From an uncultured Verrucomicrobiota bacterium (GTDB lineage Bacteria > Verrucomicrobiota > Kiritimatiellia > JAAZAB01): 64,000 nucleotides of DNA. The notes beneath the pieces were generated by a model, which was not told where the DNA came from, ran no database searches, and saw only the letters and a list, made by a program, of their open reading frames with translations. Location of the stretch: positions 1,754 to 65,753 of the forward strand of contig CAZYXU010000003.1 of assembly GCA_964650945.1 (NCBI GenBank). The letters run 5' to 3'. Each line of letters begins with the position of its first letter. Position 1 is the first letter of the stretch. This document shows, piece by piece, positions 5,526-41,188 of this stretch. Both the position numbers and the translations under genes were made by a program.

Positions 5526-6587
5526 ATGCAGGAAGTTAACCAGTTGAATCCGCCCCCGCTCCCGGAAGCACTGCCGGCCGCCCGCGCGCCGCGCCGCGCG
5601 GGCTGCTGGCTGGCGGTCATCCTGCTGGCGGTCCTGCTGCTGCTGAGCGCTTTTGCCAACCTGGCGTTGCTGCTGGGATTGTTTTTTGCCGGCGGACCGA
5701 TCGCCGACGGCTCGCCGGCCGCCGACGAATTCCCGGAATTCCAGGAAATCTGGTCCTATGGCGACGGCGACGTCAAGGCGGTCCGCCTGGCCTTGAACGG
5801 AGTCATCGCCCGGGAGGCCGACGGCGGTTTCTGGGATGAAGGCTTGGATCCCACGGCGGAGTTGCTGCTGCAAATCCGCGCCGCCCGCCAGGACGGCCAG
5901 GTGCGGGCCATCATCCTCGAAGTGGACTCCCCCGGCGGAGTGATGACGCCAACCGACGAGATTTACCGCGAATTGCAGGAATTCCGCGCCTCGGCGGACG
6001 ACCGCCGGGTGGTGGTGCTGGTCCGCGACCTGGCCGCTTCCGGGGCGTATTACATCGCCATGGCCTCGGACTGGATTGTCGCCGAGCCGACCGCCATCGT
6101 CGGCTCGATCGGCGTGATCATGCAAACCTTGAATTGGCAGGAACTGAGCGATAAAATCGGGATCCGCGACGTCACCATTACGGCCGGCGACAACAAGGAT
6201 TTGTTGAATCCGTTCAAGCCGGTGCAGCCGGAACATCTGGACGTCTTTCAGGAAATCCTCGATGAAATGCATGCGCGCTTTATCGCCATCGTCCAGCAAC
6301 GCCTGAAACTGGCGCCAGACGCGCTGGCGCAATTGACCGACGGCCGGGTTTTTTCCGCCAGCCTGGCCGCGGCCTCCGGCATGGTGGACCAGGTGGGTTA
6401 CTGGGAGGACGCGCTGGCCAAGGTCCATGAACTGCTGGGCACCGCGGCGGTGCGCGTGGTGCGCTATGAACAGCCGCGCGGCCTGGCCCGGTTTCTGGCC
6501 CGCTTATCCTTGCCGCTGCCCGCCATCAAATTGCCGGCGGCGCTGCGCGACCGGCATCCGCGCGTTTTGTATCTCTGGACGCCCTGA
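5526..6587 (+). CDS. sppA: Signal peptide peptidase SppA (protease IV, 36K type, S49 family)
   Basis: N-terminal TM anchor, then ...VRAIILEVDSPGG...DLAASGAYYIAMASDWIVAEPTAIVGSIGV... with the ClpP/crotonase-like S49 fold signature and catalytic Ser in the GS(G)AYY context. Confidence 0.8.
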   Translation: MQEVNQLNPPPLPEALPAARAPRRAGCWLAVILLAVLLLLSAFANLALLLGLFFAGGPIADGSPAADEFPEFQEIWSYGDGDVKAVRLALNGVIAREADGGFWDEGLDPTAELLLQIRAARQDGQVRAIILEVDSPGGVMTPTDEIYRELQEFRASADDRRVVVLVRDLAASGAYYIAMASDWIVAEPTAIVGSIGVIMQTLNWQELSDKIGIRDVTITAGDNKDLLNPFKPVQPEHLDVFQEILDEMHARFIAIVQQRLKLAPDALAQLTDGRVFSASLAAASGMVDQVGYWEDALAKVHELLGTAAVRVVRYEQPRGLARFLARLSLPLPAIKLPAALRDRHPRVLYLWTP

Positions 6588-8121: not shown

Positions 8122-8799
8122 ATGATGGTTATCCGTCCATATCAGTCCGCCGACCGCCCGGCGGTGCGCCGGATTTGTTGCGATACCGCGGATGCCGGCC
8201 GGCCGGTGGAAGCGTTTTTCAGCGATCGGGAACTGTTTGCCGACCTGCTGACGCGCTATTATACCGATTTTGAGCCGCAATCGCTGTGGGTGGCGGCGCC
8301 GGCCGGCCGGGCCGCCGGCTATCTGGCCGGAACCATGGATACGCGCCGGGCGCAGCGGATCATGGCGCGCCGGGTCTGGCCGGCGGCCGTCGGGCGGGCG
8401 CTATGCCGGGGCGCGCTGGGGAATGTTGCGCTCTGGCGTCTGGCATGGCGGAACCGGCGCCTGCACGCGGGGGCGCAACGGGCGGCGATCGTGGATTTGC
8501 AGGCATACCCGGCGCACCTGCATGTCAATCTTGACGCGGCGGCGCGCGGATGCGGGGCGGGCCGCCGCTTGTTGGCGGCGTTTGTTGACCAGGCGCGCGG
8601 CGCCGGCGTCCCCGGGCTGCATGCCTGGGTGCGGGCGGACAATGCCGCCGGCTTGCGGTTTTTCGCGGCCGCGGGCTTCCAGGAGCTGGGCCGCTGCCCG
8701 CTGCTGCGGCGGGAGGACGGGAATTTGTTGTATACGGTGGGGCTTGGTCTGGAGTTAACGGAACGGAATTATGCGTTGCTTTCAAAAGCCAGCTTTTGA
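8122..8799 (+). CDS. GNAT-family N-acetyltransferase
   Basis: An acetyl-CoA binding-like region HVNLDAAARGCGAGRRLLAAFVDQARGAG (R/Q-x-x-G-x-G/A motif) with overall GNAT topology. Confidence 0.7.
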   Translation: MMVIRPYQSADRPAVRRICCDTADAGRPVEAFFSDRELFADLLTRYYTDFEPQSLWVAAPAGRAAGYLAGTMDTRRAQRIMARRVWPAAVGRALCRGALGNVALWRLAWRNRRLHAGAQRAAIVDLQAYPAHLHVNLDAAARGCGAGRRLLAAFVDQARGAGVPGLHAWVRADNAAGLRFFAAAGFQELGRCPLLRREDGNLLYTVGLGLELTERNYALLSKASF

Positions 8800-9111
8800 A
8801 AGCAGTGTTCGGGGTTCAGTGTTCGGTGGAATAAAACTTTATGGAGTTATTCAAATTCTGACTCTTGAATTCCGGACTGTTGTAGCGCCACGGCGTGGCG
8901 CACTCCGGTTCCAACCGAGGCGAGCGCTGGCATAGCAAATGCCGAACGCCGTTCGGCTACTACATCCCGGAACATCCGCATTATTTTACCAATAGACTTT
9001 TGAAACTGGTTCGGTTTTTTATAAGGGCAAATTGCATGAATCGCGTTTTTAGAAGGTTTTAAGGTTTACGACTTTAAGGTTTTACGGCTGAACACCGAAC
9101 ACTGAACACTT
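8800..9111. repeat. MITE-like non-coding element. It has inverted terminal heptamer arrays (GTGTTCRG / CYGAACAC) flanked by a direct TTTGAAAG repeat, and two internal perfect palindromes
   Basis: Left end: TTTTGAAAG|CAGTGTTCGGGGTTCAGTGTTCGG. Right end: CTGAACACCGAACACTGAACACT|TTTGAAAG. Internal palindromes: GCGCCACGGCGTGGCGC and GCCGAACGCCGTTCGGC. No ORF with coding character. It contains the TTCAAATTCTGACTCTTGAATTCC module shared with the other copies. Confidence 0.55.
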
Positions 9112-10560
9112 TTGAAAGAGACTCTTATGCAAACGATTAAAAAAATTTACGGTTGCTTGCAGTCGCTCGCTTTCTGCCTATGCCTGGCTCAGGCCGGTTG
9201 CCTGGCGCCGCCAAGTCCGCCGCCGGCCGGGGCCGGGGAGGCGCTTGACGCCGCCAGCGCCGGCCGTCCGCCGGCGCCGTTGCTTTTGAATGATGACGAC
9301 CGCATCATGGTGCTGGCGCCGCACCCGGATGACGAGTCGCTGGCCGCCGGCGGGCTGATCCAGCAGGCCTTGGCGCGCAAGCTGCCGGTGAAGGTGGTCT
9401 TTTTCACTTATGGCGACAATAACGAATTGTCGTTCATGCTGTATCGCAAACGCCCCGTGGTGGCGCCGTCGGAAGTGCGGCGCATGGGCGAGGTGCGCCA
9501 TGCCGAGGCCCTGCGCGCCGCCGCCGTCCTGGGACTGGCGCCCGCCGACCTGGTTTTCCTGGGCTATCCCGATTTCGGCACGCTGGATATCTGGGAGCGG
9601 CACTGGGGAGATGCGCCGGCATTTTGCAGCATGCTCACCCGCGTGCGCGCCGTGAGTTATCCCGACGCTTTCCGGCCCGGCGCCGCCTATCGCGGCGAGG
9701 AGATTTTAAGGGATTTGGAAACGCTGCTGCGGGATTTCCGGCCGACGGCCCTGCTGGTATCGCACCCCGCGGATTTCAATCCCGACCACCGGGCGCTCTA
9801 CGCCTTCACCCGCGTGGCGCTTTGGAACCTGGCGCCGGAAATTCAGCCGCGGCTGCTGCCGTTCCTGGTGCATTTCAAACAATGGCCGGCCCCGCGCGGC
9901 TATCATCCGGATGAGGGCATGACCCCGCCGCCGGATTTGCTGGCGCCGATCCAGTGGCAGACGCTTCCGCTGCCCGCCGGCGTGGCGGCGGAAAAACGCC
10001 GCGCCTTGCAGGCGCATGCCTCCCAGTATGCCTACAGCGCCAAATTCCTGGATGCGTTCGCGCGCCGCAACGAAATCTTCGGCAACCTGCCGCCGGTGCG
10101 CCTGCGGCGCGCCGCCGCGCCGGCCAGCCTGGATGCGGACGTGTCCGCGGATGAAATCCCCGAGGTTTTGACCGGGGATGAACGCGCGGAATTTGTCGGC
10201 ATCGAAAAATATTCCGCCGCGATCAGCAACGGCACGCTGTGCCTGACGCTGGACTTCCGCCGCCCCCTGACCGGCGTGGTCCAGGCGTCGGTGTTTTGCT
10301 GCGGGTACCGCGCCGATACCCCGTTCGACCGGATGCCGAAAATCCAGGTGCGCATCGGCGCCACCCGGTCGGAGTGTTTGGATGGCGGCCGGCCCCTGCC
10401 GCGCGGGGCGGTGGCGATCGAACGCCACCTGCGCCGGCTGGAGGTGAAAATCCCGCTGGCGGTCGCCGGCAATCCCGACCGGGCGCTGGTCTGCGCCCGG
10501 ACCTACCTGGAAGAATTGCCGCTGGACTGGGCCGCCTGGCGGGTGCTGGAGTTTCAATGA
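9112..10560 (+). CDS. Lipoprotein-anchored PIG-L/LmbE-family N-acetylglucosaminyl deacetylase with a C-terminal extension of unknown function
   Basis: Lipobox LAQAGC after a signal peptide. IMVLAPHPDDESLAAGG is the PIG-L zinc-binding HPDDE signature. A ~250-aa C-terminal domain has no recognised motif. Confidence 0.75.
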   Translation: MKETLMQTIKKIYGCLQSLAFCLCLAQAGCLAPPSPPPAGAGEALDAASAGRPPAPLLLNDDDRIMVLAPHPDDESLAAGGLIQQALARKLPVKVVFFTYGDNNELSFMLYRKRPVVAPSEVRRMGEVRHAEALRAAAVLGLAPADLVFLGYPDFGTLDIWERHWGDAPAFCSMLTRVRAVSYPDAFRPGAAYRGEEILRDLETLLRDFRPTALLVSHPADFNPDHRALYAFTRVALWNLAPEIQPRLLPFLVHFKQWPAPRGYHPDEGMTPPPDLLAPIQWQTLPLPAGVAAEKRRALQAHASQYAYSAKFLDAFARRNEIFGNLPPVRLRRAAAPASLDADVSADEIPEVLTGDERAEFVGIEKYSAAISNGTLCLTLDFRRPLTGVVQASVFCCGYRADTPFDRMPKIQVRIGATRSECLDGGRPLPRGAVAIERHLRRLEVKIPLAVAGNPDRALVCARTYLEELPLDWAAWRVLEFQ

Positions 10561-11819
10561 TGCATGCGATTGTTCTCTCCATCGGCGACGAGTTGGTCCT
10601 GGGCCAGGTGGCGGATACCAATGCCGGCTGGCTCAGCGCCCGGCTCGCGGAATGCGGCATCATGACCGTCTGGCACCAGGCCGTGCCGGATGACCGGGCG
10701 GCCATCGCCGCCGCGCTGCGCCGCGCGGCGGATGCGGCCGAATTGATTATCGTTTCCGGCGGATTGGGGCCGACCCCGGACGACCTGACCCGCCCCGCCC
10801 TGGCGGATGCCCTCGGGGCGCCCCTGGAATTACATGCGCCGGCGCGGGAGCAAATCGAACGGTTCTTCCGCGACCGCGGCTGGGTCATGTCGGAATCCAA
10901 TTTGACGCAAGCTATGCTGCCGCGCGGCGCGGAATCGCTGCCCAATCCGGCCGGCACCGCCCCGGGCATCTGCGCGCGGCTGGGGCCGGCGGACGTGTTT
11001 GTCGTGCCCGGCGTGCCGCGTGAAATGCGCGCGCTGTTTAATTTGCATATTGCGCCGCGCCTGCGCGCGCAATCCGGCCGGGTAATTCTGACCGCCCGGT
11101 TGGACACCTTCGGGTTGGGCGAATCGAAGGTGGCGGATAAGCTCGGGGACTTGATGCGCCGCGGCCGCAACCCCCTGGTGGGCACGACGGTCGCGGACGG
11201 CATTGTCACCGTGCGCGTGCGTGCGGATTTTCCGGATGCGGAGGCGGCGCGCGCCGCGCTTGACCGGACGGTCCGGGATGCGCGCCAATGCCTGGGGCCG
11301 GCGGTCTTCAGCGACGGCACAGTCTCCCTGGCGGAGGTGGTCGGCGATCTTTTGCGCCGCCGGCAATGGCGGTTGGCCGCGGCGGAAAGCTGCACCGGCG
11401 GCTTGCTGGGAAAAATGCTGACCGATGCCCCCGGCGCCAGCGATTTTTACCTGGGCGGCTGGGTGGTTTACGATAATGCCATGAAAACCAGCCAGTTGGG
11501 CGTGCCGGAATCCATGCTGCAAACCGCGGGCGCCGTCAGCGAGGCGGTGGTGCGGCATCTGGCCGAGGCGGCGCTCCAACGCGCCGGGGCGGATTGCGCC
11601 CTGGCCGTTTCCGGGATCGCCGGACCGGCCGGCGGCACGCCGGACAAGCCGGTGGGCACGATCTGGATCGCGCTGGGCGAGCGCTGCGGCGGCCGGATTG
11701 TCACGCAGGCGGAACGCTGGCTCTGGCCGGGCGAGCGCGCGCTGGTGCGCGACCGCGCGGCCAAAGCCGCCTTGAATATGCTGCGCTTGCGCCTGCTGGA
11801 AACTTGTCCGCCGCCATGA
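10557..11819 (+). CDS. cinA: CinA-family protein (competence/damage-inducible; NMN deamidase PncC-like C-terminal domain plus MocF-like N-terminal domain)
   Basis: MMHAIVLSIGDELVLGQVADTNAGWL (MoCF-biosynthesis-like N-terminus) and a C-terminal CinA domain (AAAESCTGGLLG). Its start ATG overlaps the previous gene's stop (ATGA), which indicates translational coupling. Confidence 0.85.
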   Translation: MMHAIVLSIGDELVLGQVADTNAGWLSARLAECGIMTVWHQAVPDDRAAIAAALRRAADAAELIIVSGGLGPTPDDLTRPALADALGAPLELHAPAREQIERFFRDRGWVMSESNLTQAMLPRGAESLPNPAGTAPGICARLGPADVFVVPGVPREMRALFNLHIAPRLRAQSGRVILTARLDTFGLGESKVADKLGDLMRRGRNPLVGTTVADGIVTVRVRADFPDAEAARAALDRTVRDARQCLGPAVFSDGTVSLAEVVGDLLRRRQWRLAAAESCTGGLLGKMLTDAPGASDFYLGGWVVYDNAMKTSQLGVPESMLQTAGAVSEAVVRHLAEAALQRAGADCALAVSGIAGPAGGTPDKPVGTIWIALGERCGGRIVTQAERWLWPGERALVRDRAAKAALNMLRLRLLETCPPP

Positions 11820-11827
11820 ATTTTGTC

Positions 11828-11960
11828 TGCTGAGTCTCTTTCAAAAGTGTTCAGTGTTCAGTGTTCGGCACCAGAGATTTTATAGTAACGCAACACATTG
11901 ATCTTGGCCGTTTGCAATTATTTTGAATTCTGACTTCTGAATCCTGAATTCATTCAAAAC
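11828..11960. repeat. Partial copy of the intergenic repeat family (GAGTCTCTTTCAAAAG–(TGTTCAG)3–…–TTGAATTCTGACTTCTGAATCCTGAATTC)
   Basis: The 20-mer GAGTCTCTTTCAAAAGTGTT is the exact reverse complement of the right end of the 8800–9111 element (AACACTTTTGAAAGAGACTC). It also shares the GAATTCAGA module. Confidence 0.5.
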
Positions 11961-12017
11961 GTGAGTTTTGAAATATGCTCTGATGCATGCTTTGCGATTA
12001 TTTGGCAGGCGATCAAA

Positions 12018-15000
12018 ATGCACAATGCCAAGTGGATTGGTTCAATCGGGTTGGCAGCGGGTTTATGGCTGACGCTGGGCTCGGGCTTAAGCCGCGCCCA
12101 GGCGCTGGTCATCCCCGCCGCCGGGCTCCGCGCCGGGGGCAACCCGCCGGGGATGATCGGCGGCCCCGGAACGCCCATCGTCGGCTGGGAGGAAATCGCG
12201 GGCTTGCCGCTCGGCGAGCAATTTCTGGGGGCGGGAGTCTTGAGCGGCGCGGTCTATGCCGTGGGCGGGATGAATGCGACTTATTCCGCCCCGCTCTATA
12301 CCAACGTCTTCCGGTATGACGGCGCCGCCTGGACGCCGGCGCCGGCGCTCCCCGGCGCCGCTTATACCCTGGCCGTGGCATGCTACAGCAATGCGCTGTA
12401 TACCCTGGGCGGCTTTGCCGGCTCCGGCACCCGTACGAATGTTTACAAGTTCGATGGCGCCGGCTGGTCCGAGGTGGCGGGGTTGCCGGCCGGCCGGGGC
12501 GCCGGCGCGGCCGCGGTCTGGAATGACGCCTTGTATTATATCGGCGGCCGCAATACCGCCGGCGCCGCCCAGACGAATGTTTACCGCTATAACGGCGCAA
12601 CCTGGAGCCAGGTGCGCGGCCTGCCCGCCCCGCGCGGCTGCCTGACCGCCAATGTCTGGAATGGCGCGCTGTATGCCGTCGGGGGCAGTGATGCGACGAA
12701 CGTTTACCAATACGACGGCACGAACTGGACGGAAACGGCGGGCTTGCCGGTCATCATGGGCTATGCGGCTTCCGGCGTCCTGGACGACGGGCTCCATGTT
12801 TTCGGCGGGGAGAGCGGCGCCGGGCAGACCAATGTGTATCGGTTTGACGGCACGAACTGGACGGCGGTTCCCGGCCTGCCCACCGCGCGCTTTGGCGTGG
12901 GCGGCGCCGTCCTCAGCAACGTCTTGTATTCCATCGGCGGGTTCGTCAGCGGTGTCTCCACCAATGTGTACCGCTCCGTGCTGACCGATTACCTGGGCGT
13001 GACGCCGTCCAACGGCGCCATGGCCGGCGGGTATGAAGTCGTGATCACCGGGACCAACCTCTCCGATGGCGCCGATGTCACCAATGTCACATTGTGCGGC
13101 GTCACCGCCGCGGTTGCCCGGGTGCATGGCGGCACCCAGATCGTGGCGATCGCCGGCGCCGGCCCGCCCGGTTTGGGCGACGTGCGCGTGTTTTCCGCAA
13201 GTTTTGGAGAATCGGTCCGCACCAATGCTTTTACATATATGGGCGCGGACATGCTCTGCCTGGGAACCAATGGCGCGGCTATCCCGAATGCGGCGCACGC
13301 CGCGGCGGAGAATGGGACGGATTTCGGCGAGCTGCCCTGGGGCGGCGCCCGCACGAATTATCTGGTGATCACTAACTCCGGCAACCAGGATTTGACGATC
13401 AACGGGATCGGCGTGCATGGCGCCGGGGCCGCTGCGTTCAAGGTTGTGTCGCCGCCGGCGCTGGTGCCGCCCGGCGGCGCATCGAATTTCGCGGCGGTGT
13501 TCGCGCCGCCCGGTCCGGGTGCGTATCCGGCAGCCTTCGGCATCGCCAATAATTCATCCAATCCCTTGTATGTGATCTACCTGGCGGGCGTAGGTGTAAA
13601 ACGTACGCAGACGTTATCGTTTTCAGCGGCAGATCACCTGGCGGTCACGGCTTCCGTGGCGTTGACGGCTTCGGCTTCATCCGGGTTGCCGGTAAGTTTT
13701 TCGGCGATGCCCCCCGGACGCATCACGGGCGGCAATATCCTCTCTTTCAACGGGACGGGCCAGGTGACTGTCGCGGCGGCGCAGGCCGGCAATGTCGATT
13801 GGCACGCCGCCGCGGCAACGCAAACAGTCCGGGTGACGCAGTATGGCCCATCCGCCGGCCGGCTGGCGGTGGAATTAACGCCGGCCGGCGGATCATGGAC
13901 CATGGTCAGCGCGCCGGCCGCGTATGTCGGGCCCTGGTCGGGAATCGGGCGCCTGGCTGCCATCCCGGCGCCGCCGGGCGGCTACCGCGTCGCCTGGGGC
14001 GCCCTGGCCGGTTATGCGCCGCCCCTGCCGCATTCCGGCGAACTGGCGCCGGGCAGCGCGTTGGTGTTCACGGGAATATACTTGCAGGTTACGGATGATC
14101 TGGCGCCGCCGCCGGGCGTGTCGGCGACGGCCGGAGTCTATACGAATTTGGTGCGGGTTTCCTGGCAGGGCGTGCCTGGCGCCGCGATTTATGAAATACG
14201 CCGCCACACCGCGAACGATCCGGCCCGCTCAAGCTGGCTGGCGGAAGTGCCGGCGGGCGCCGGAGCGCAAGCTGATGATCCCACGCCTGCAACTTATGCT
14301 TACGATGACTACGACGTTTTGCCCAACGTTTCCAGCTACTACTGGGTGCGGGCGAAAACGGCGGCGCGCATCAGCCGGTTCAGCCGGGCCGGCATGGGCT
14401 ATGCCCGGTTGGACCCCGGCGCCATGCAGGGCGTTTCAGACCTGGCGGCGGACGACCTGGTGTTTCTGCCGGTGAATCTCCAGCCCGATTCCGCCGCCGG
14501 CACAGTGTCGTTCCGACTGGCCAATTACGGGCCGGATGCCGTGAACGGCGCGGCGGTAGCGCTGGATTTCTACATGGGCGCGGCCGGCGGGGAGCTGCTG
14601 TGGATGGGCGGGGATCGCCGGAATTTCACGCTGGCGTCCGGCGCGGAAGAGTTGGTGGTGCTGGCCGCCGCCGCCCGGGGCGGCATAATCGCGCGCGGCG
14701 ATCTGCCGCATGATTCCCCGTTAACCGTGCGCGTGCGGGTGCGCCACCTGACCGCCCGGCGCGATCCCAATCCGCTGAATGACACGGCCGCCGCCGCCGG
14801 AACGGCGCGCATCCGCGCGGCCGGCGCGAGTTCCAGAGGACGCGGATTGACGGATTACGACGGCGACGGCAAGTCGGATTTGGCGGTGCTGAGCGCCGAT
14901 CGCAGCTTGTTCGTCTTCCTGGCGACCGGCGACCGGTTTGCGCAGATGCATTGGGAGGCTGGAGCCGCAGGCCCCGGTTTGTATCATGCGGCTCCCGGCG

Positions 15001-15701
15001 ATTACGACGGCGACGGCATCCTGGACCTGGGACTGTTCGATGAGGCGGCCGGAATATTTTATGTGCGCTATTCCAGCACGGGGATGGCCGCATCGGCAAC
15101 GCTGGGCGGGCCGGGTTGCCGCCCGGCCGTGGCGGATTACGACGGCGACGGCCGCAGCGATCCGGCCGTGTACCAGGCGGCGGAAGGTTATTGGACGGGT
15201 TGGTTGTCGGCGGAAAATTACTCGCAAAAGTATACCTATGCCGGCGGGCCGCGCTATGCGCCCGTGCCGGCGGATTACGATGGAGACGGGCTGGCCGATC
15301 CGGTGGCCTATTCCAGGGTCATCGGCGCCTGGGCGGGCCGGCTCTCCGGACTGGGATATCAGCCCGTCGCCTTGCTTTCCGGCGTGCCGGATGCGCAGGC
15401 CGTGCCGGGCGATTACGACGGGGACGGCCTGGCGGACCTGGCGCTATACCAGGCTGCCGGCGGACAATGGCTGGTGCGTCTCTCCAATCACGGCGCGTGG
15501 GATGTTTCCGCCGCGCTGGTCCTGGGCGGCCCCGGTTACGTTCCCGTGCCGGGCGATTACGACGGCGACGGTCTGTCCGATCCCGCGGTTTACAGCGCCG
15601 CGGCCGGCGGGGTTTGGCGGGGATTGTTGTCTGCGCAGGGATACGCTCCGGAAATTGAAGGCTATTTCGGCGGTATGGATTACGAGCCGATGTTTGAATA
15701 A
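12018..15701 (+). CDS. Large secreted protein: N-terminal Kelch-repeat beta-propeller, IPT/TIG domain, and C-terminal FG-GAP/VCBS-type (integrin-alpha-like) repeats
   Basis: Signal peptide MHNAKWIGSIGLAAGLWLTLGSGLSRAQA. Six or more Kelch-like repeats are present (…ALYxxGG…TNVYxYDGxxW…). The TIG-like segment is GGYEVVITGTNLSDGADVTNVTLCGV. Seven DYDGDG(K/R/L)SD…Y repeats sit near the C-terminus. The start was moved from 11961 to the Met preceding the signal peptide. Confidence 0.75.
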   Translation: MHNAKWIGSIGLAAGLWLTLGSGLSRAQALVIPAAGLRAGGNPPGMIGGPGTPIVGWEEIAGLPLGEQFLGAGVLSGAVYAVGGMNATYSAPLYTNVFRYDGAAWTPAPALPGAAYTLAVACYSNALYTLGGFAGSGTRTNVYKFDGAGWSEVAGLPAGRGAGAAAVWNDALYYIGGRNTAGAAQTNVYRYNGATWSQVRGLPAPRGCLTANVWNGALYAVGGSDATNVYQYDGTNWTETAGLPVIMGYAASGVLDDGLHVFGGESGAGQTNVYRFDGTNWTAVPGLPTARFGVGGAVLSNVLYSIGGFVSGVSTNVYRSVLTDYLGVTPSNGAMAGGYEVVITGTNLSDGADVTNVTLCGVTAAVARVHGGTQIVAIAGAGPPGLGDVRVFSASFGESVRTNAFTYMGADMLCLGTNGAAIPNAAHAAAENGTDFGELPWGGARTNYLVITNSGNQDLTINGIGVHGAGAAAFKVVSPPALVPPGGASNFAAVFAPPGPGAYPAAFGIANNSSNPLYVIYLAGVGVKRTQTLSFSAADHLAVTASVALTASASSGLPVSFSAMPPGRITGGNILSFNGTGQVTVAAAQAGNVDWHAAAATQTVRVTQYGPSAGRLAVELTPAGGSWTMVSAPAAYVGPWSGIGRLAAIPAPPGGYRVAWGALAGYAPPLPHSGELAPGSALVFTGIYLQVTDDLAPPPGVSATAGVYTNLVRVSWQGVPGAAIYEIRRHTANDPARSSWLAEVPAGAGAQADDPTPATYAYDDYDVLPNVSSYYWVRAKTAARISRFSRAGMGYARLDPGAMQGVSDLAADDLVFLPVNLQPDSAAGTVSFRLANYGPDAVNGAAVALDFYMGAAGGELLWMGGDRRNFTLASGAEELVVLAAAARGGIIARGDLPHDSPLTVRVRVRHLTARRDPNPLNDTAAAAGTARIRAAGASSRGRGLTDYDGDGKSDLAVLSADRSLFVFLATGDRFAQMHWEAGAAGPGLYHAAPGDYDGDGILDLGLFDEAAGIFYVRYSSTGMAASATLGGPGCRPAVADYDGDGRSDPAVYQAAEGYWTGWLSAENYSQKYTYAGGPRYAPVPADYDGDGLADPVAYSRVIGAWAGRLSGLGYQPVALLSGVPDAQAVPGDYDGDGLADLALYQAAGGQWLVRLSNHGAWDVSAALVLGGPGYVPVPGDYDGDGLSDPAVYSAAAGGVWRGLLSAQGYAPEIEGYFGGMDYEPMFE

Positions 15702-17139: not shown

Positions 17140-17216
17140 GGGGGAGTAGCTCAATTGGTTAGAGTCCCAGACTGTCGATCTGGTTGTTGCGGGTTCGAGT
17201 CCCGTCTCTCCCGCCA
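17140..17216 (+). tRNA. tRNA-Asp (anticodon GUC)
   Basis: Cloverleaf folded by hand. Acceptor GGGGGAG/CTCTCCC, D-arm GCTC…GAGT, anticodon stem CCAGA/TCTGG with loop CTGTCGA (anticodon GTC), T-arm GCGGG-TTCGAGT-CCCGT, discriminator G, and an encoded CCA. Confidence 0.9.
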
Positions 17217-17377: not shown

Positions 17378-17453
17378 GGCGATGTAGCTCAGTTGGTAGA
17401 GCGGAGGACTCATAAGCCTTAGGTCCGGGGTTCGAATCCCCGCGTCGCCACCA
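17378..17453 (+). tRNA. tRNA-Met (anticodon CAU; elongator Met versus lysidine-modified Ile2 cannot be distinguished)
   Basis: Acceptor GGCGATG/CGTCGCC, D-arm GCTC-AGTTGGTA-GAGC, anticodon loop CTCATAA, T-arm CGGGG-TTCGAAT-CCCCG, and an encoded CCA. One A·G mismatch at 31·39 in the anticodon stem. Confidence 0.85.
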
Positions 17454-23926: not shown

Positions 23927-24043
23927 GGCCTGCTCCTGTTTTTCGATTGCGTGTTGATATCGCCGGCCCGGCATGGCGGCCAGGGGCCTGGCCGCCCTAC
24001 CCATGGAAACGCCCTTGCGCTCGTCCCCGGCATCCGGCAGAGG

Positions 24044-28223: not shown

Positions 28224-29300
28224 ATGGCGCGTATTTTTAATTTTAACGCCGGTCCCGCCACCCTGCCCCTGGAAGTCCTGGAAGAGGCCCAACGCGATTT
28301 GCTGGATTTTCAGGGCACCGGCATGTCGCTGATCGAGAGCAGTCACCGCGGCAAGGCTTACGATGCCGTCCATGCCGAGGCCGTCGCCAATTACCGCCAA
28401 CTGTTGCATTGCCCCGAAGATTATGCCGTGCTGTTCCTCCCCGGCGGCGCCAGCATGCAGTTTGCCATGCTGCCGCTGAACCTCCTGCCGGCCGGCCAGA
28501 CCGCCGATTACATTAATTCGGGCGCCTGGGCGTCGAAAGCGATCAAGGAAGCCAAGCTGGTCGGGAAGGTCAACATCGCCGCCGACACCGGCAAGGCCCA
28601 GCCCGCGCGCCTGCCGGCGGCGGGCGAATTGCAACTGACGCCGGGCGCCGCCTATGTGCATCTGACGTCCAACGAAACCATTGCCGGCACGCAATGGAAA
28701 ACCTTTCCGCAAACCGCCGCGCCGTTGGTGGCGGACATGTCGTCCGACATCCTTTCCCGGCCGTTCGACATCCGGCAATTCGGCATGATTTACGCCGGCG
28801 CCCAGAAAAACATCGGCCCGTCCGGCATCGCCCTGGTGGCGCTGCGCAAGGATCTGGCGGCGCGCGCGCCGGCCAACCTCCCGGTGATGCTGCGCTATCA
28901 GACCCATATCGAGGAAAATTCGCTTTACAACACCCCGCCCACCTTCAGCATCTACCTGATGATGCTGGTGTCGCGCTGGCTGCTGAAAAACGGCCCGGAG
29001 ACGGTTTACCGCCGCAATCGCGAAAAGGCGGATAAGATTTATGCCGCCATCGACGCCACGGAGTTTTACCGCGGGACGGCCGTCCGGGAGTTTCGCTCGG
29101 ACATGAACATTACCTTCCGTTTGCCCAGCGAGCCGCTGGAGGAGCAGTTCGTCAAGGAAGCCTCCCGGCAGGGCATGTCCGGACTGAAGGGACATCGGTC
29201 GGTAGGCGGCGTCCGGGCTTCGGTTTACAATGCCCTGCCCATGGAAGGCGCCCAGGCGCTGGCGGACTTCATGCGCGAATTTGCGCGCAAAAACGGGTAA
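28224..29300 (+). CDS. serC: Phosphoserine aminotransferase SerC
   Basis: MARIFNFNAGPATLP N-terminus, the PLP-lysine region GMIYAGAQKNIGPSGIALV, and overall class-V aminotransferase architecture. Confidence 0.9.
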   Translation: MARIFNFNAGPATLPLEVLEEAQRDLLDFQGTGMSLIESSHRGKAYDAVHAEAVANYRQLLHCPEDYAVLFLPGGASMQFAMLPLNLLPAGQTADYINSGAWASKAIKEAKLVGKVNIAADTGKAQPARLPAAGELQLTPGAAYVHLTSNETIAGTQWKTFPQTAAPLVADMSSDILSRPFDIRQFGMIYAGAQKNIGPSGIALVALRKDLAARAPANLPVMLRYQTHIEENSLYNTPPTFSIYLMMLVSRWLLKNGPETVYRRNREKADKIYAAIDATEFYRGTAVREFRSDMNITFRLPSEPLEEQFVKEASRQGMSGLKGHRSVGGVRASVYNALPMEGAQALADFMREFARKNG

Positions 29301-29384
29301 ACACCGGAACCAATTTCAAAACTCGCGTTTTAAAGGAATTCAGAATTCAGGCGTCAGAATTCAGAATAAAACGGAGCGATATAA
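29300..29384. repeat. Copy of the GAATTCAGAAT module of the intergenic repeat family (GAATTCAGAATTCAGGCGTCAGAATTCAGAAT)
   Basis: It is the reverse complement of the TTGAATTCTGACTTCTGAATCCTGAATTC module at 11925–11955 and 8850–8880. It is preceded by TTTCAAAAC. Confidence 0.4.
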
Positions 29385-35339: not shown

Positions 35340-35410
35340 GATCGTTATCCTGCCTGTTGAATTCTGCCCCCGAATACTGCCCCCCGCGAACACTGACCAC
35401 CGAACACTCC
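35340..35410. repeat. Degenerate copy of the intergenic repeat family (TTGAATTCTGCC…CGAACACTGACCACCGAACACT)
   Basis: Both modules are present between two reverse-strand genes. Confidence 0.4.
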
Positions 35411-40849: not shown

Positions 40850-41160
40850 GGCAAAAATGACATAATTACCGAACCCCGAACCACCGAACCACTGAACCCC
40901 GAACCACCGAACCACTGAACCCCGAACCACCGAACCACTGAACCCCGAACCACCGAACCACTGAACCCTGAACCACGAACCACTGAACCCTGAACCCTGA
41001 ACCCCGAACCCCGAACACCGAACCCCGAACCCCGAACCACCGAACCCCGAACCACTGAACCACCGAACCCCTAAAACCGAACCCCGAACACCGAACACTG
41101 AACACCGAACACTGAACCCCGAACACTGAACCCCGAACCCCGAACCACCGAACACTGAAC
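40850..41160. repeat. ~310-bp degenerate microsatellite of ~39 tandem CYGAACM(C) heptamer/octamer units (VNTR-like)
   Basis: Read directly: ccgaaccccgaaccaccgaaccactgaaccccgaacc…gaacactgaacacg. Same unit as the TIR heptamers of the 8800–9111 element. It lies between prmA and mlaE. Confidence 0.9.
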
Positions 41161-41188
41161 ACGTTGTCGAGAGATTGGATTAAGACGC

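Follow-up and report, generated by a model that had tools for sequence, protein, structure and literature searches.

What is the 312-nucleotide non-coding segment that separates a GNAT acetyltransferase gene from a PIG-L deacetylase gene in an uncultured Verrucomicrobiota bacterium (Kiritimatiellia; JAAZAB01)? The segment occupies positions 8800-9111 of a stretch of 64,000 nucleotides (nt) of contig CAZYXU010000003.1 (assembly GCA_964650945.1), which was analysed as a whole and is referred to here as the window. The GNAT gene (8122-8799), the PIG-L gene (9127-10560), and a CinA gene (10557-11819) all lie on the + strand. More distant homologues of the flanking proteins are labelled Kiritimatiellae, Kiritimatiellota, or Omnitrophica in their source records. 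An earlier note had described the segment as one miniature transposable element with inverted repeats (MITE) that ends in heptamer arrays, is flanked by an 8-nt target-site duplication, and contains two palindromes. The analysis reported here indicates instead that the GNAT/PIG-L spacer is probably a nest, in which two partial copies of a mobile ~170-nt repeat family lie tail to tail together with a pair of GTAG-tagged hairpins. The family would be mobilized in trans, and its arrays would drift by slippage.

The sequence features on which the MITE description was built are all present, with small corrections to coordinates, and lie far above chance. The left array (8803-8828, +) reads CAGTGTT CGGGGTT CAGTGTT CGGTG (3.7 units, TCAG/GTGTTCR type), and the right array (9088-9110, +) reads CTGAACA CCGAACA CTGAACA CT (3.3 units, CTGA/YGAACAC type). 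The two are 86-100% complementary, depending on register, and the left array is identical, in inverted orientation, to 41103-41128. The unit had been given as a "GTGTTCRG heptamer"; the arrays are real, but their period is 7, and the last base of GTGTTCRG already belongs to the following unit. The window contains 24 occurrences of GTGTTCRG where shuffles contain 2.8 +/- 1.5, with 0 of 100 shuffles reaching 24. The 8-mer TTTGAAAG adjoins both arrays (8795-8802 and 9111-9118), its left copy contains the GNAT stop codon TGA (8797-8799), and the two palindromes, each perfect over 17 nt, lie at 8885-8901 and 8941-8957. Across the window, Tandem Repeats Finder places period-7 arrays at 339-359, 8803-8828, 9088-9110, 11846-11866, 11920-11951, 29336-29367, and 40869-41153.

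A repeat family and its empty sites

Copies from three sources served to define the family: the window, the related genome L124 (GCA_964463985.1; PIG-L/CinA DNA ~81% identical), and metagenome contigs. Its unit is ~170 nt long, non-coding, and dyad-symmetric. In the consensus of a nine-copy alignment, a palindrome termed H1 (GAGTTGCTTTCAAAAG-TCAG-CTTTTGAAAGC; general form GAGTTGCTTTCAAAAG-N4-CTTTTGAAAGC) is followed by four to five CAGTATT/CAGTAGT units, ~40 nt of AT-rich DNA, four ATTCTGA units, and a second palindrome, H2 (TTTCAAAACGTGAGTTTTGAAATTGGCTC). Both ends are short AT-rich palindromes with the stem TTTCAAAAS / STTTTGAAA. TTTCAAAAS occurs seven times in the window against 0.9 expected, in all seven cases in repeat-bearing spacers. 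Inside each terminal palindrome stand three to five heptamers that read NNNTCAG inward, giving a TCAG-type array and then an inverted CTGA-type array. Terminal inverted repeats are present: GAGTTGCTTTCAAAAG and the reverse complement of the right end, GAGCCAATTTCAAAAC, agree at 11 of 16 positions, and the next 30 nt inward, which are the heptamer arrays, are likewise inverted.

A profile built from five copies and searched with nhmmer finds a sixth full copy that was not among its seeds (L131 6264-6431, E = 2e-44). In all, the window holds one full and three partial copies, and five full copies are found in L124, L129, L131, and L132, plus truncated and solo-H1 copies. The H1 pattern occurs in seven metagenome contigs, with more full, truncated, and solo-palindrome copies. 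As single-stranded DNA, the canonical copy at L129 1495-1664 folds into three hairpins (-40.3 kcal/mol, z = -9.0), namely H1, a long central hairpin formed by the paired arrays, and H2. Folded alone, H1 and H2 give z-scores of -2.7 to -4.9 in four of five hairpins, the fifth being the degenerate H2 of a partial copy, E3 (z = -0.2).

Family modules occur at two other loci in L124. At one of them, TTGCTTTCAAAAGTCAGCTTTTGAAAGCAG (1183-1212) matches window positions 8776-8805 at 29 of 30 positions, where coding DNA is ~80% identical; ordinary spacers, unlike H1, do not align between the two species. The H1 sequence is constrained across species. The broader idea that the elements as wholes are better conserved than coding DNA was rejected, with full copies 65-84% identical against ~80%; H1 alone stands out. 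H1 and H2 were found only in the window, L124, and metagenome contigs and are absent from 117 loci of other phyla. A plasmid collection searched with a canonical copy gave no match, and Rfam has no match in L124, L129, L131, or L132. In a Kiritimatiellia metagenome-assembled genome (MAG), L093 4575-4790 has a similar array-spacer-array core without the H1 and H2 palindromes. The proposal of a lineage-restricted family is borne out: its members are small and non-coding, recur between genes, and have dyad symmetry. The other intergenic sites where the earlier note had seen recurring modules do all hold modules of the family, although not all share the same ones. Their features are:

322-361, + strand: family fragment, AATCTCTG..TG with three YGAACAC units (37 nt 92% identical, inverted, to 11844-11879; nhmmer E = 0.057, array only)
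11826-11982, + strand: E1, full copy, with a half H1, three GTGTTCR units, a 57-nt AT-rich spacer, four GAATTCT units, and H2 (nhmmer 11827-11982, E = 4.5e-37)
29305-29371, - strand: E3, partial copy, with a GAATTCA array and H2 (profile positions 110-176, E = 2.8e-16)
35379-35408, + strand: degenerate YGAACAC array (repeat comparison)
40869-41162, + strand: long array, 39 units of CCGAACC / CYGAACA, super-period 23 nt (Tandem Repeats Finder score 299-368)

Among these sites, YGAACAC/GTGTTCR arrays lie at 337-358, 11846-11868, 35379-35408, and 40869-41162. The last of them (294 nt) is composed of CCGAACC/CCGAACCA/CTGAACC units with a 7+8+8 super-period and CYGAACA at its 3' end, and it fills the whole spacer from a PrmA-like methyltransferase gene to an MlaE permease gene.

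Insertion is documented at two of these sites. The E1 block carries the half-palindrome GAGTCTCTTTCAAAAG and the hairpin TTCAAAACGTGAGTTTTGAA, and its 57-nt spacer is unique. In the sister strain L119 (PIG-L 97% and coding DNA 97.5% identical), the CinA/FG-GAP spacer has CTTA in place of the 157 nt, and in the outgroup L120 this spacer is short and E1 is absent. Given the outgroup, an insertion is a simpler reading of the polymorphism than a deletion in L119. E3 fills an 83-nt spacer (29301-29383) between SerC and the next gene and has a hairpin as in E1; 29302-29369 is 82% identical over 68 nt to 11918-11985, inverted, and holds the GAATTCA/hairpin module only. At the E3 site, the spacers of outgroups L134 and L135 are 10 and 4 nt, and E3 is present, ~9% diverged, in a 99% strain (L133). 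Empty sites, which the earlier note had proposed looking for in sister strains, were found for E1 (sister strain and outgroup) and for E3 (outgroups). What was gained at E1 and E3 is composite DNA that is in part non-repetitive, and slippage cannot make such DNA. No fewer than two species, and metagenome contigs as well, carry the family, whose members were inserted at gene junctions while closely related strains and species diverged. The term MITE/REP-like (REP, repetitive extragenic palindrome) is apt in a broad sense, as at least two members are inserted relative to sister strains or outgroups.

Composition of the GNAT/PIG-L spacer

The profile matches the spacer not as one element but as two separate partial copies on opposite strands. 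The features of the spacer and its edges are:

8755-8799, + strand: derived tail at the 3' end of GNAT, 13 additional codons (TERNYALLSKASF), with the TGA inside H1 (protein alignment)
8771-8876, + strand: left partial copy, with H1, a GTGTTCR array, a shortened spacer, and an ATTCTGA-type array (8854-8880), H2 missing (profile positions 6-142, E = 2.8e-13; nine-copy alignment)
8773-8804, no strand: H1, GCGTTGCTTTCAAAAG CC AG CTTTTGAAAGCA, including the left TTTGAAAG (13-nt perfect arms 8777-8789 / 8792-8804)
8870-8972, no strand: REP/REPIN-like doublet of GTAGCGCCACGGCGTGGCGC (8882-8901, +) and GTAGCCGAACGGCGTTCGGC (8941-8960, -) with an outer imperfect stem (GTAG-plus-hairpin scan)
8990-9015, + strand: possible displaced 3' half of H2 and right terminus of the left copy, GACTTTTGAAACTGGTTCGG (17 of 19 positions shared with L129 1646-1664; tentative)
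9053-9087, + strand: octamer array AAGGTTTT, ~4 units (Tandem Repeats Finder)
9078-9128, - strand: right partial copy, inverted, with the half-palindrome GAGTCTCTTTCAAAAG (9109-9124) and a GTGTTCR array (profile positions 4-72, E = 1.7e-3)

Two family copies lie tail to tail at 8773-9124. On the left, H1 (8773-8804) forms a 12-bp DNA hairpin (z = -4.8). The right copy stops 2 nt short of the PIG-L start codon (9127). It belongs to a half-H1 subtype, which the left end of E1 also shows, and has AAGGTTTT octamers next to its array; AAAACCTT units of this octamer array also follow H2 in L124 (1345-1375). The heptamer arrays are not the termini they were taken for, being internal modules beside terminal palindromes. 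The 8-mer fares no better as a target-site duplication: TTTGAAAG is the conserved arm of the terminal palindrome, matches L124, and at 11832-11847 lies inside DNA that the sister strain lacks. Because TTTGAAAG travels with the array, it is not duplicated target DNA. An exact 20-mer had been reported to be shared with 11828-11960; the match exists, but it is really one of 38 nt at 95% identity (9087-9124 vs 11832-11869, inverted), and it runs 15 nt past the array, through TTTTGAAAGAGACTC.

The 150 nt between the two partial copies are unique apart from one relative of the GTAG hairpin: for the interior 8875-9040, no second copy was found in the window or in 130+ loci, the only hit being a 35-nt GTAG-hairpin relative in L120. 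A weak match links 8990-9015 to 29298-29344. The two internal palindromes, which had been counted as parts of one MITE, belong to a different, GTAG-tagged REP-like repeat. Its 20-nt units (8882-8901 and 8941-8960) each consist of GTAG and a 7-bp GC stem and form an inverted pair. The doublet is an inverted repeat (8870-8896 / 8946-8972) with an outer stem (8870-8884 / 8958-8972), and the fold of 8860-8985, which encloses it, has z = -3.1. The relative in L120 (1000-1025) lies in an unrelated spacer, and GTAG-hairpin sites number two in the 64-kb window (8882-8960 and ~23970-24000) and a few in L120. H1 and H2, set against the REP tag, are ~30-nt palindromes with neither GTAG nor CGTC, their tag being GAGTT or none. 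A second GTAG palindrome type, GTAGGGCGGCCAG-N5-CTGGCCGCC, occurs once in the window (23966-24002, - strand) and in L120 at 1000-1025 and 1068-1165; in L120, it is repeated in tandem (unit 38 nt, 2.5 copies).

The spacer is thus a pile-up of at least two repeat families, and the annotation of the locus is corrected accordingly. A further dispersed repeat of ~75 nt, GGGTTGCCAGAGGTTGAATCAGGTTCAACGGTTGTTTGAGGTTGG, preceded by GTGTTCAG-type heptamers, occurs in L120 (2088-2150 and 9858-9925), L121 (178-245 and 7966-8030), and L124 (1036-1140 and 9036-9120). The two spacers in which it sits correspond by synteny to repeat-bearing ones in the window. Orthologous spacers therefore serve as repeat nests, with different repeats in different species. 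In L122 (PIG-L 58% identical), the GNAT/PIG-L spacer (5657-6000, 343 nt) contains an unrelated 23-mer, GGGCGAGCGTCCCCGCGAGCCGC, twice. Rfam has no match in 8700-9200 even at E <= 10, and its only matches in the window are two tRNAs (tRNA genes at 17140-17213 and 17378-17450). The whole GNAT/PIG-L spacer as one structured RNA was considered and set aside: its strong z-score arises from the inverted arrays by construction and was given no weight.

Six GNAT relatives, one of them from a strain with 96% identity, end at SVGMARxL, and the 13-residue extension is unique to the window protein. The position of the GNAT stop within the repeat follows from the loss of the ancestral stop, past which the gene continues for 13 codons. 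An exact look-up of the window GNAT protein returned no record, since the repeat-derived tail is unique. The GNAT junction is variable in several ways, through strain-specific insertion or rearrangement. In L123 (1083-1860; GNAT 96% identical), the ancestral stop is followed by 21 nt and then by an N6/N4 DNA methylase gene, with neither repeats nor PIG-L there. Besides rewriting the GNAT 3' end, the repeats supply the entire 5' leader of the PIG-L/CinA operon, so that the expression of these genes is likely to be strain-dependent.

The same repeats affect assembly. The exact PIG-L protein is encoded in a 2767-bp Logan contig, both ends of which lie inside the arrays flanking PIG-L and CinA. 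Short-read contigs break inside arrays at both ends of L001 and at the start of L119, as expected of multi-copy repeats. The repeats account for the short-read contigs of this lineage that stop at gene junctions. In L124, a run of N (11841-11950) occupies the CinA/FG-GAP spacer, the site of E1 in the window. Downstream of E1, a gene at 11961-15701 encodes a 1246-residue Kelch/FG-GAP/TIG repeat protein and contains internal DNA repeats of ~140 nt.

Mobility and rival explanations

It can be inferred that the family is a non-autonomous mobile element, a reading that makes no commitment on the enzyme. An enzyme whose gene lies elsewhere, and which recognizes the terminal hairpins, would move the copies in trans. 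The leading candidate, suggested by the twin hairpins, would be an HUH/tyrosine transposase specific for single strands, of the IS200/IS605 or RAYT (REP-associated tyrosine transposase) kind; alternatively, a DDE transposase might use the inverted ends GAG....TTTCAAAA. The heptamer arrays would then lengthen, shorten, and drift by replication slippage, in both unit number and unit sequence. Landing beside stop and start codons would rewrite gene ends and 5' leaders, as in the GNAT tail and at the PIG-L start. Target specificity of the IS200/IS605 type was considered and rejected: the left 5-nt flanks are CGTAA, CAACC, TAGTT, GGTAG, AGCCT, TTGCT, and CTGCT, and the right flanks are equally varied.

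Several observations count against this proposal. About a dozen copies were observed in total, and the full copies are just 65-84% identical to one another, which speaks against a recent burst. No transposase domain was found in the 14 proteins scanned or in the precomputed Pfam lists of related loci. The flanks of the six full copies share no target motif; 4-bp direct repeats accompany two of the six (AACC and AGTT, in L124), and there are none at the E1 junction, for which the empty site is known. E1, the window copy, no longer has array complementarity (z = -0.7), and for E1 taken alone, a deletion in L119 is formally possible. Within the GNAT/PIG-L spacer, a degenerate H2 at ~9027-9056 is visible in the nine-copy alignment only and is a weak assignment; the H2 remnant proposed at 8990-9015 is likewise a weak assignment, its match not being significant alone (E = 3.3).

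It is highly improbable that 8803-9110 is a single MITE with the arrays as terminal inverted repeats and a duplicated 8-bp target. Such an element would account for the inverted, 86-100% complementary arrays with TTTGAAAG beside both, and for a fold of the whole spacer in which the arrays are paired (z = -5.5); larger repeats with inverted array pairs also exist in other phyla, for example as two copies in L047. However, the L047 copies are similar beyond their arrays, and the 259-nt interior of the window segment has no second copy. The left half has a second array of its own and aligns to the family separately. Moreover, TTTGAAAG is a palindrome arm conserved in another species and recurs, together with seven further flanking bases, at 11832-11847, inside DNA absent from the empty site. 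There is also a slim chance that nothing here is mobile, the arrays having arisen by slippage in place, the spacers having exchanged sequence by gene conversion or recombination, and the strain differences being deletions. As summarized in a later paper, no long simple repeats are commoner than heptanucleotide ones in many bacterial genomes, and slippage has been put forward as their origin (Mrazek 2007, via PMC4679880). The wide occurrence of (GAACACY)n arrays, found in at least 117 genomes of many phyla, fits this explanation, as do the 39-unit array at 40869-41162, which has neither H1 nor H2, and the orthologous spacers (site A, GNAT/PIG-L) that have arrays in three species with differing flanks. 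Yet slippage can make neither the 57-nt non-repetitive spacer and hairpins of E1 nor the 67 nt of E3 where outgroup spacers are 4-10 nt, and the complete layout is found again at unrelated loci, both in different species and in metagenomes.

A further explanation keeps mobility as a mere means of delivery and holds that the repeats are retained mainly as cis-acting signals at operon junctions. On this view, the arrays might be bound by a protein with affinity for single-stranded nucleic acid (S1, Csp, or CsrA-like), which would set translation, and the hairpins might process, stabilize, or terminate RNA. As the main reason for the repeats being kept, this is unlikely. Element ends do lie 0-12 nt from start codons (2 nt at PIG-L in the window; also L124 ~16021, L130, and L131), E1 and E3 lie directly 3' of stop codons within gene strings, H1 is conserved between species at 29 of 30 positions, and a like proposal has been made for TAACTGA arrays closely upstream of Beggiatoaceae start codons (PMC4679880). 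However, the flanking genes can run in either direction relative to an element, and the same junctions lack elements in sister strains and outgroups. Scans around both elements gave no sigma-70-like promoter, and the frequency of terminator-like sites does not exceed that in shuffles. The elements could act as regulatory cassettes. Weighed against all three alternatives, the nest of two partial copies with a GTAG hairpin pair is the preferred reading.

Array polarity and known systems

The heptamer array reaches far beyond the family. The exact array GAACACYGAACACYGAACAC, or (GAACACY)3, occurs in at least 117 genomes of very different phyla; its hosts, among the matches listed, are Verrucomicrobiota, Planctomycetota, Lentisphaerota, Kiritimatiellia, Bacteroidota, Chloroflexota, Acidobacteriota, Actinomycetota, some Proteobacteria, and one archaeal MAG. 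The heptamer itself is therefore not lineage-specific. In these loci (L002-L118), the arrays often adjoin other arrays of CTGA-core heptamers (CTGACCA, CTGAAAA, CTGAATA, and CTGCCAA).

Inverted array pairs show a regular polarity. All 21 of the 21 pairs less than 300 nt apart (19 loci among L002-L118) read 5'-(GTGTTCR)n...(YGAACAC)n-3', and none reads in reverse. A looser detector gave 32 vs 4. The pairs come from about a dozen lineages, including Planctomycetota, Verrucomicrobiota, Lentisphaeria, Chloroflexota, Bacteroidota, Desulfobacterota, and Gammaproteobacteria, and have spacers of 6-153 nt (e.g., L008 728-817, L035 6645-6698, L047 1859-2048 and 3213-3410, and L077 7275-7350). The window pair and the canonical family element obey the same polarity. 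No trivial cause is seen, because the loci were chosen irrespective of strand and an inverted pair reads alike on both. At the planctomycete locus L047, the two array-pair units are similar beyond the arrays, and this similarity points to arrays that sit inside larger repeats.

It is conceivable, if rather doubtful, that the arrays, instead of being accidental products of slippage, are what does the work in a class of hairpin-forming elements that is widespread but undescribed. The fixed polarity of a structure otherwise symmetric between strands might then reflect a shared sequence-specific machinery that reads NNNTCAG arrays inward from an end, or a shared mode of making, for example fold-back synthesis on a G/T-rich single strand. 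If so, one mechanism would join these elements, the TAACTGA arrays of Beggiatoa and cyanobacteria, and the short tandemly repeated repetitive (STRR) sequences of cyanobacteria. The polarity rule is the part most worth following and is simple enough to examine in complete genomes.

No description of this architecture was found in the literature, and a search with the array sequence gave only an unrelated paper on earthworm microsatellites. REPs and REPINs are short extragenic palindromes, often in inverted pairs, that lie between co-directional genes and are thought to be moved in trans by the single-copy tyrosine transposase RAYT (Bertels & Rainey 2011, PMC3116915; Di Nocera et al. 2013, PMC3733652). 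The family resembles them in being non-coding, dispersed, and palindromic, and the central doublet alone has the REPIN layout, its GTAG-tagged palindromes (8882-8901 and 8941-8960) being paired in inverted orientation. Unlike REPs, H1 and H2 are AT-rich and carry GAGTT rather than GTAG or CGTC, and the unit is ~170 nt long with two heptamer arrays, which are absent from REPINs. Palindrome-associated elements derived from IS200/IS605 (PATEs) have subterminal hairpins, no obligatory duplication, insertion 3' of a fixed 4-5-nt target, and no inverted ends. Like PATEs, the family is a small non-coding unit with hairpins of similar stems at both ends. However, its flanks have no common motif, and its two ends are inverted copies of each other.

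Bacterial MITEs include the Correia/NEMIS elements of Neisseria, and Correia elements have a consistent TA target-site duplication. For the family, no consistent duplication was found. Another bacterial MITE is BrickBuilt of Porphyromonas gingivalis, a MITE with an internal minisatellite whose 23-nt unit is repeated in one direction (Klein et al. 2015, PMC4596501). Shared with elements of this type are the small size, the non-coding and strictly intergenic nature, the inverted ends around tandem repeats, the variable and truncated forms, the presence or absence according to strain, and the position near gene starts, from which such elements can alter expression. In contrast to BrickBuilt, the family carries its 7-nt units in a pair of inverted arrays, and a palindrome makes up each of its ends.

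The arrays find their counterparts among bacterial heptanucleotide repeats. Cyanobacterial STRR heptamers include CCCCAGT, TTGGTCA, and CAACAGT. Arrays of the heptamer TAACTGA, whose function is unexplained, stand beside start codons in Beggiatoaceae, cyanobacteria, and Bacteroidetes (MacGregor 2015, PMC4679880), and a Beggiatoa-type genome has 169 direct sets of TAACTGA-type repeats and one inverted set (PMC4679880). The present arrays share with such repeats a period of 7, an intergenic position, 2-40 units, mixed units, a location after stops or before starts, strain specificity, and the breaking of assemblies; with TAACTGA repeats, they share the CTGA/TCAG core (TAACTGA vs ACACTGA here). 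They differ from the TAACTGA network in their units (CAGTGTT/CGGTGTT, GAATTCT, and CCGAACC), in occurring in both orientations, and in following stops as often as they precede starts. Heptanucleotide repeats have been described as free-standing and direct, whereas those of the family form inverted pairs inside a unit with terminal palindromes. The family thereby gives heptanucleotide repeats a concrete context, as parts of a mobile unit rather than free-standing microsatellites.

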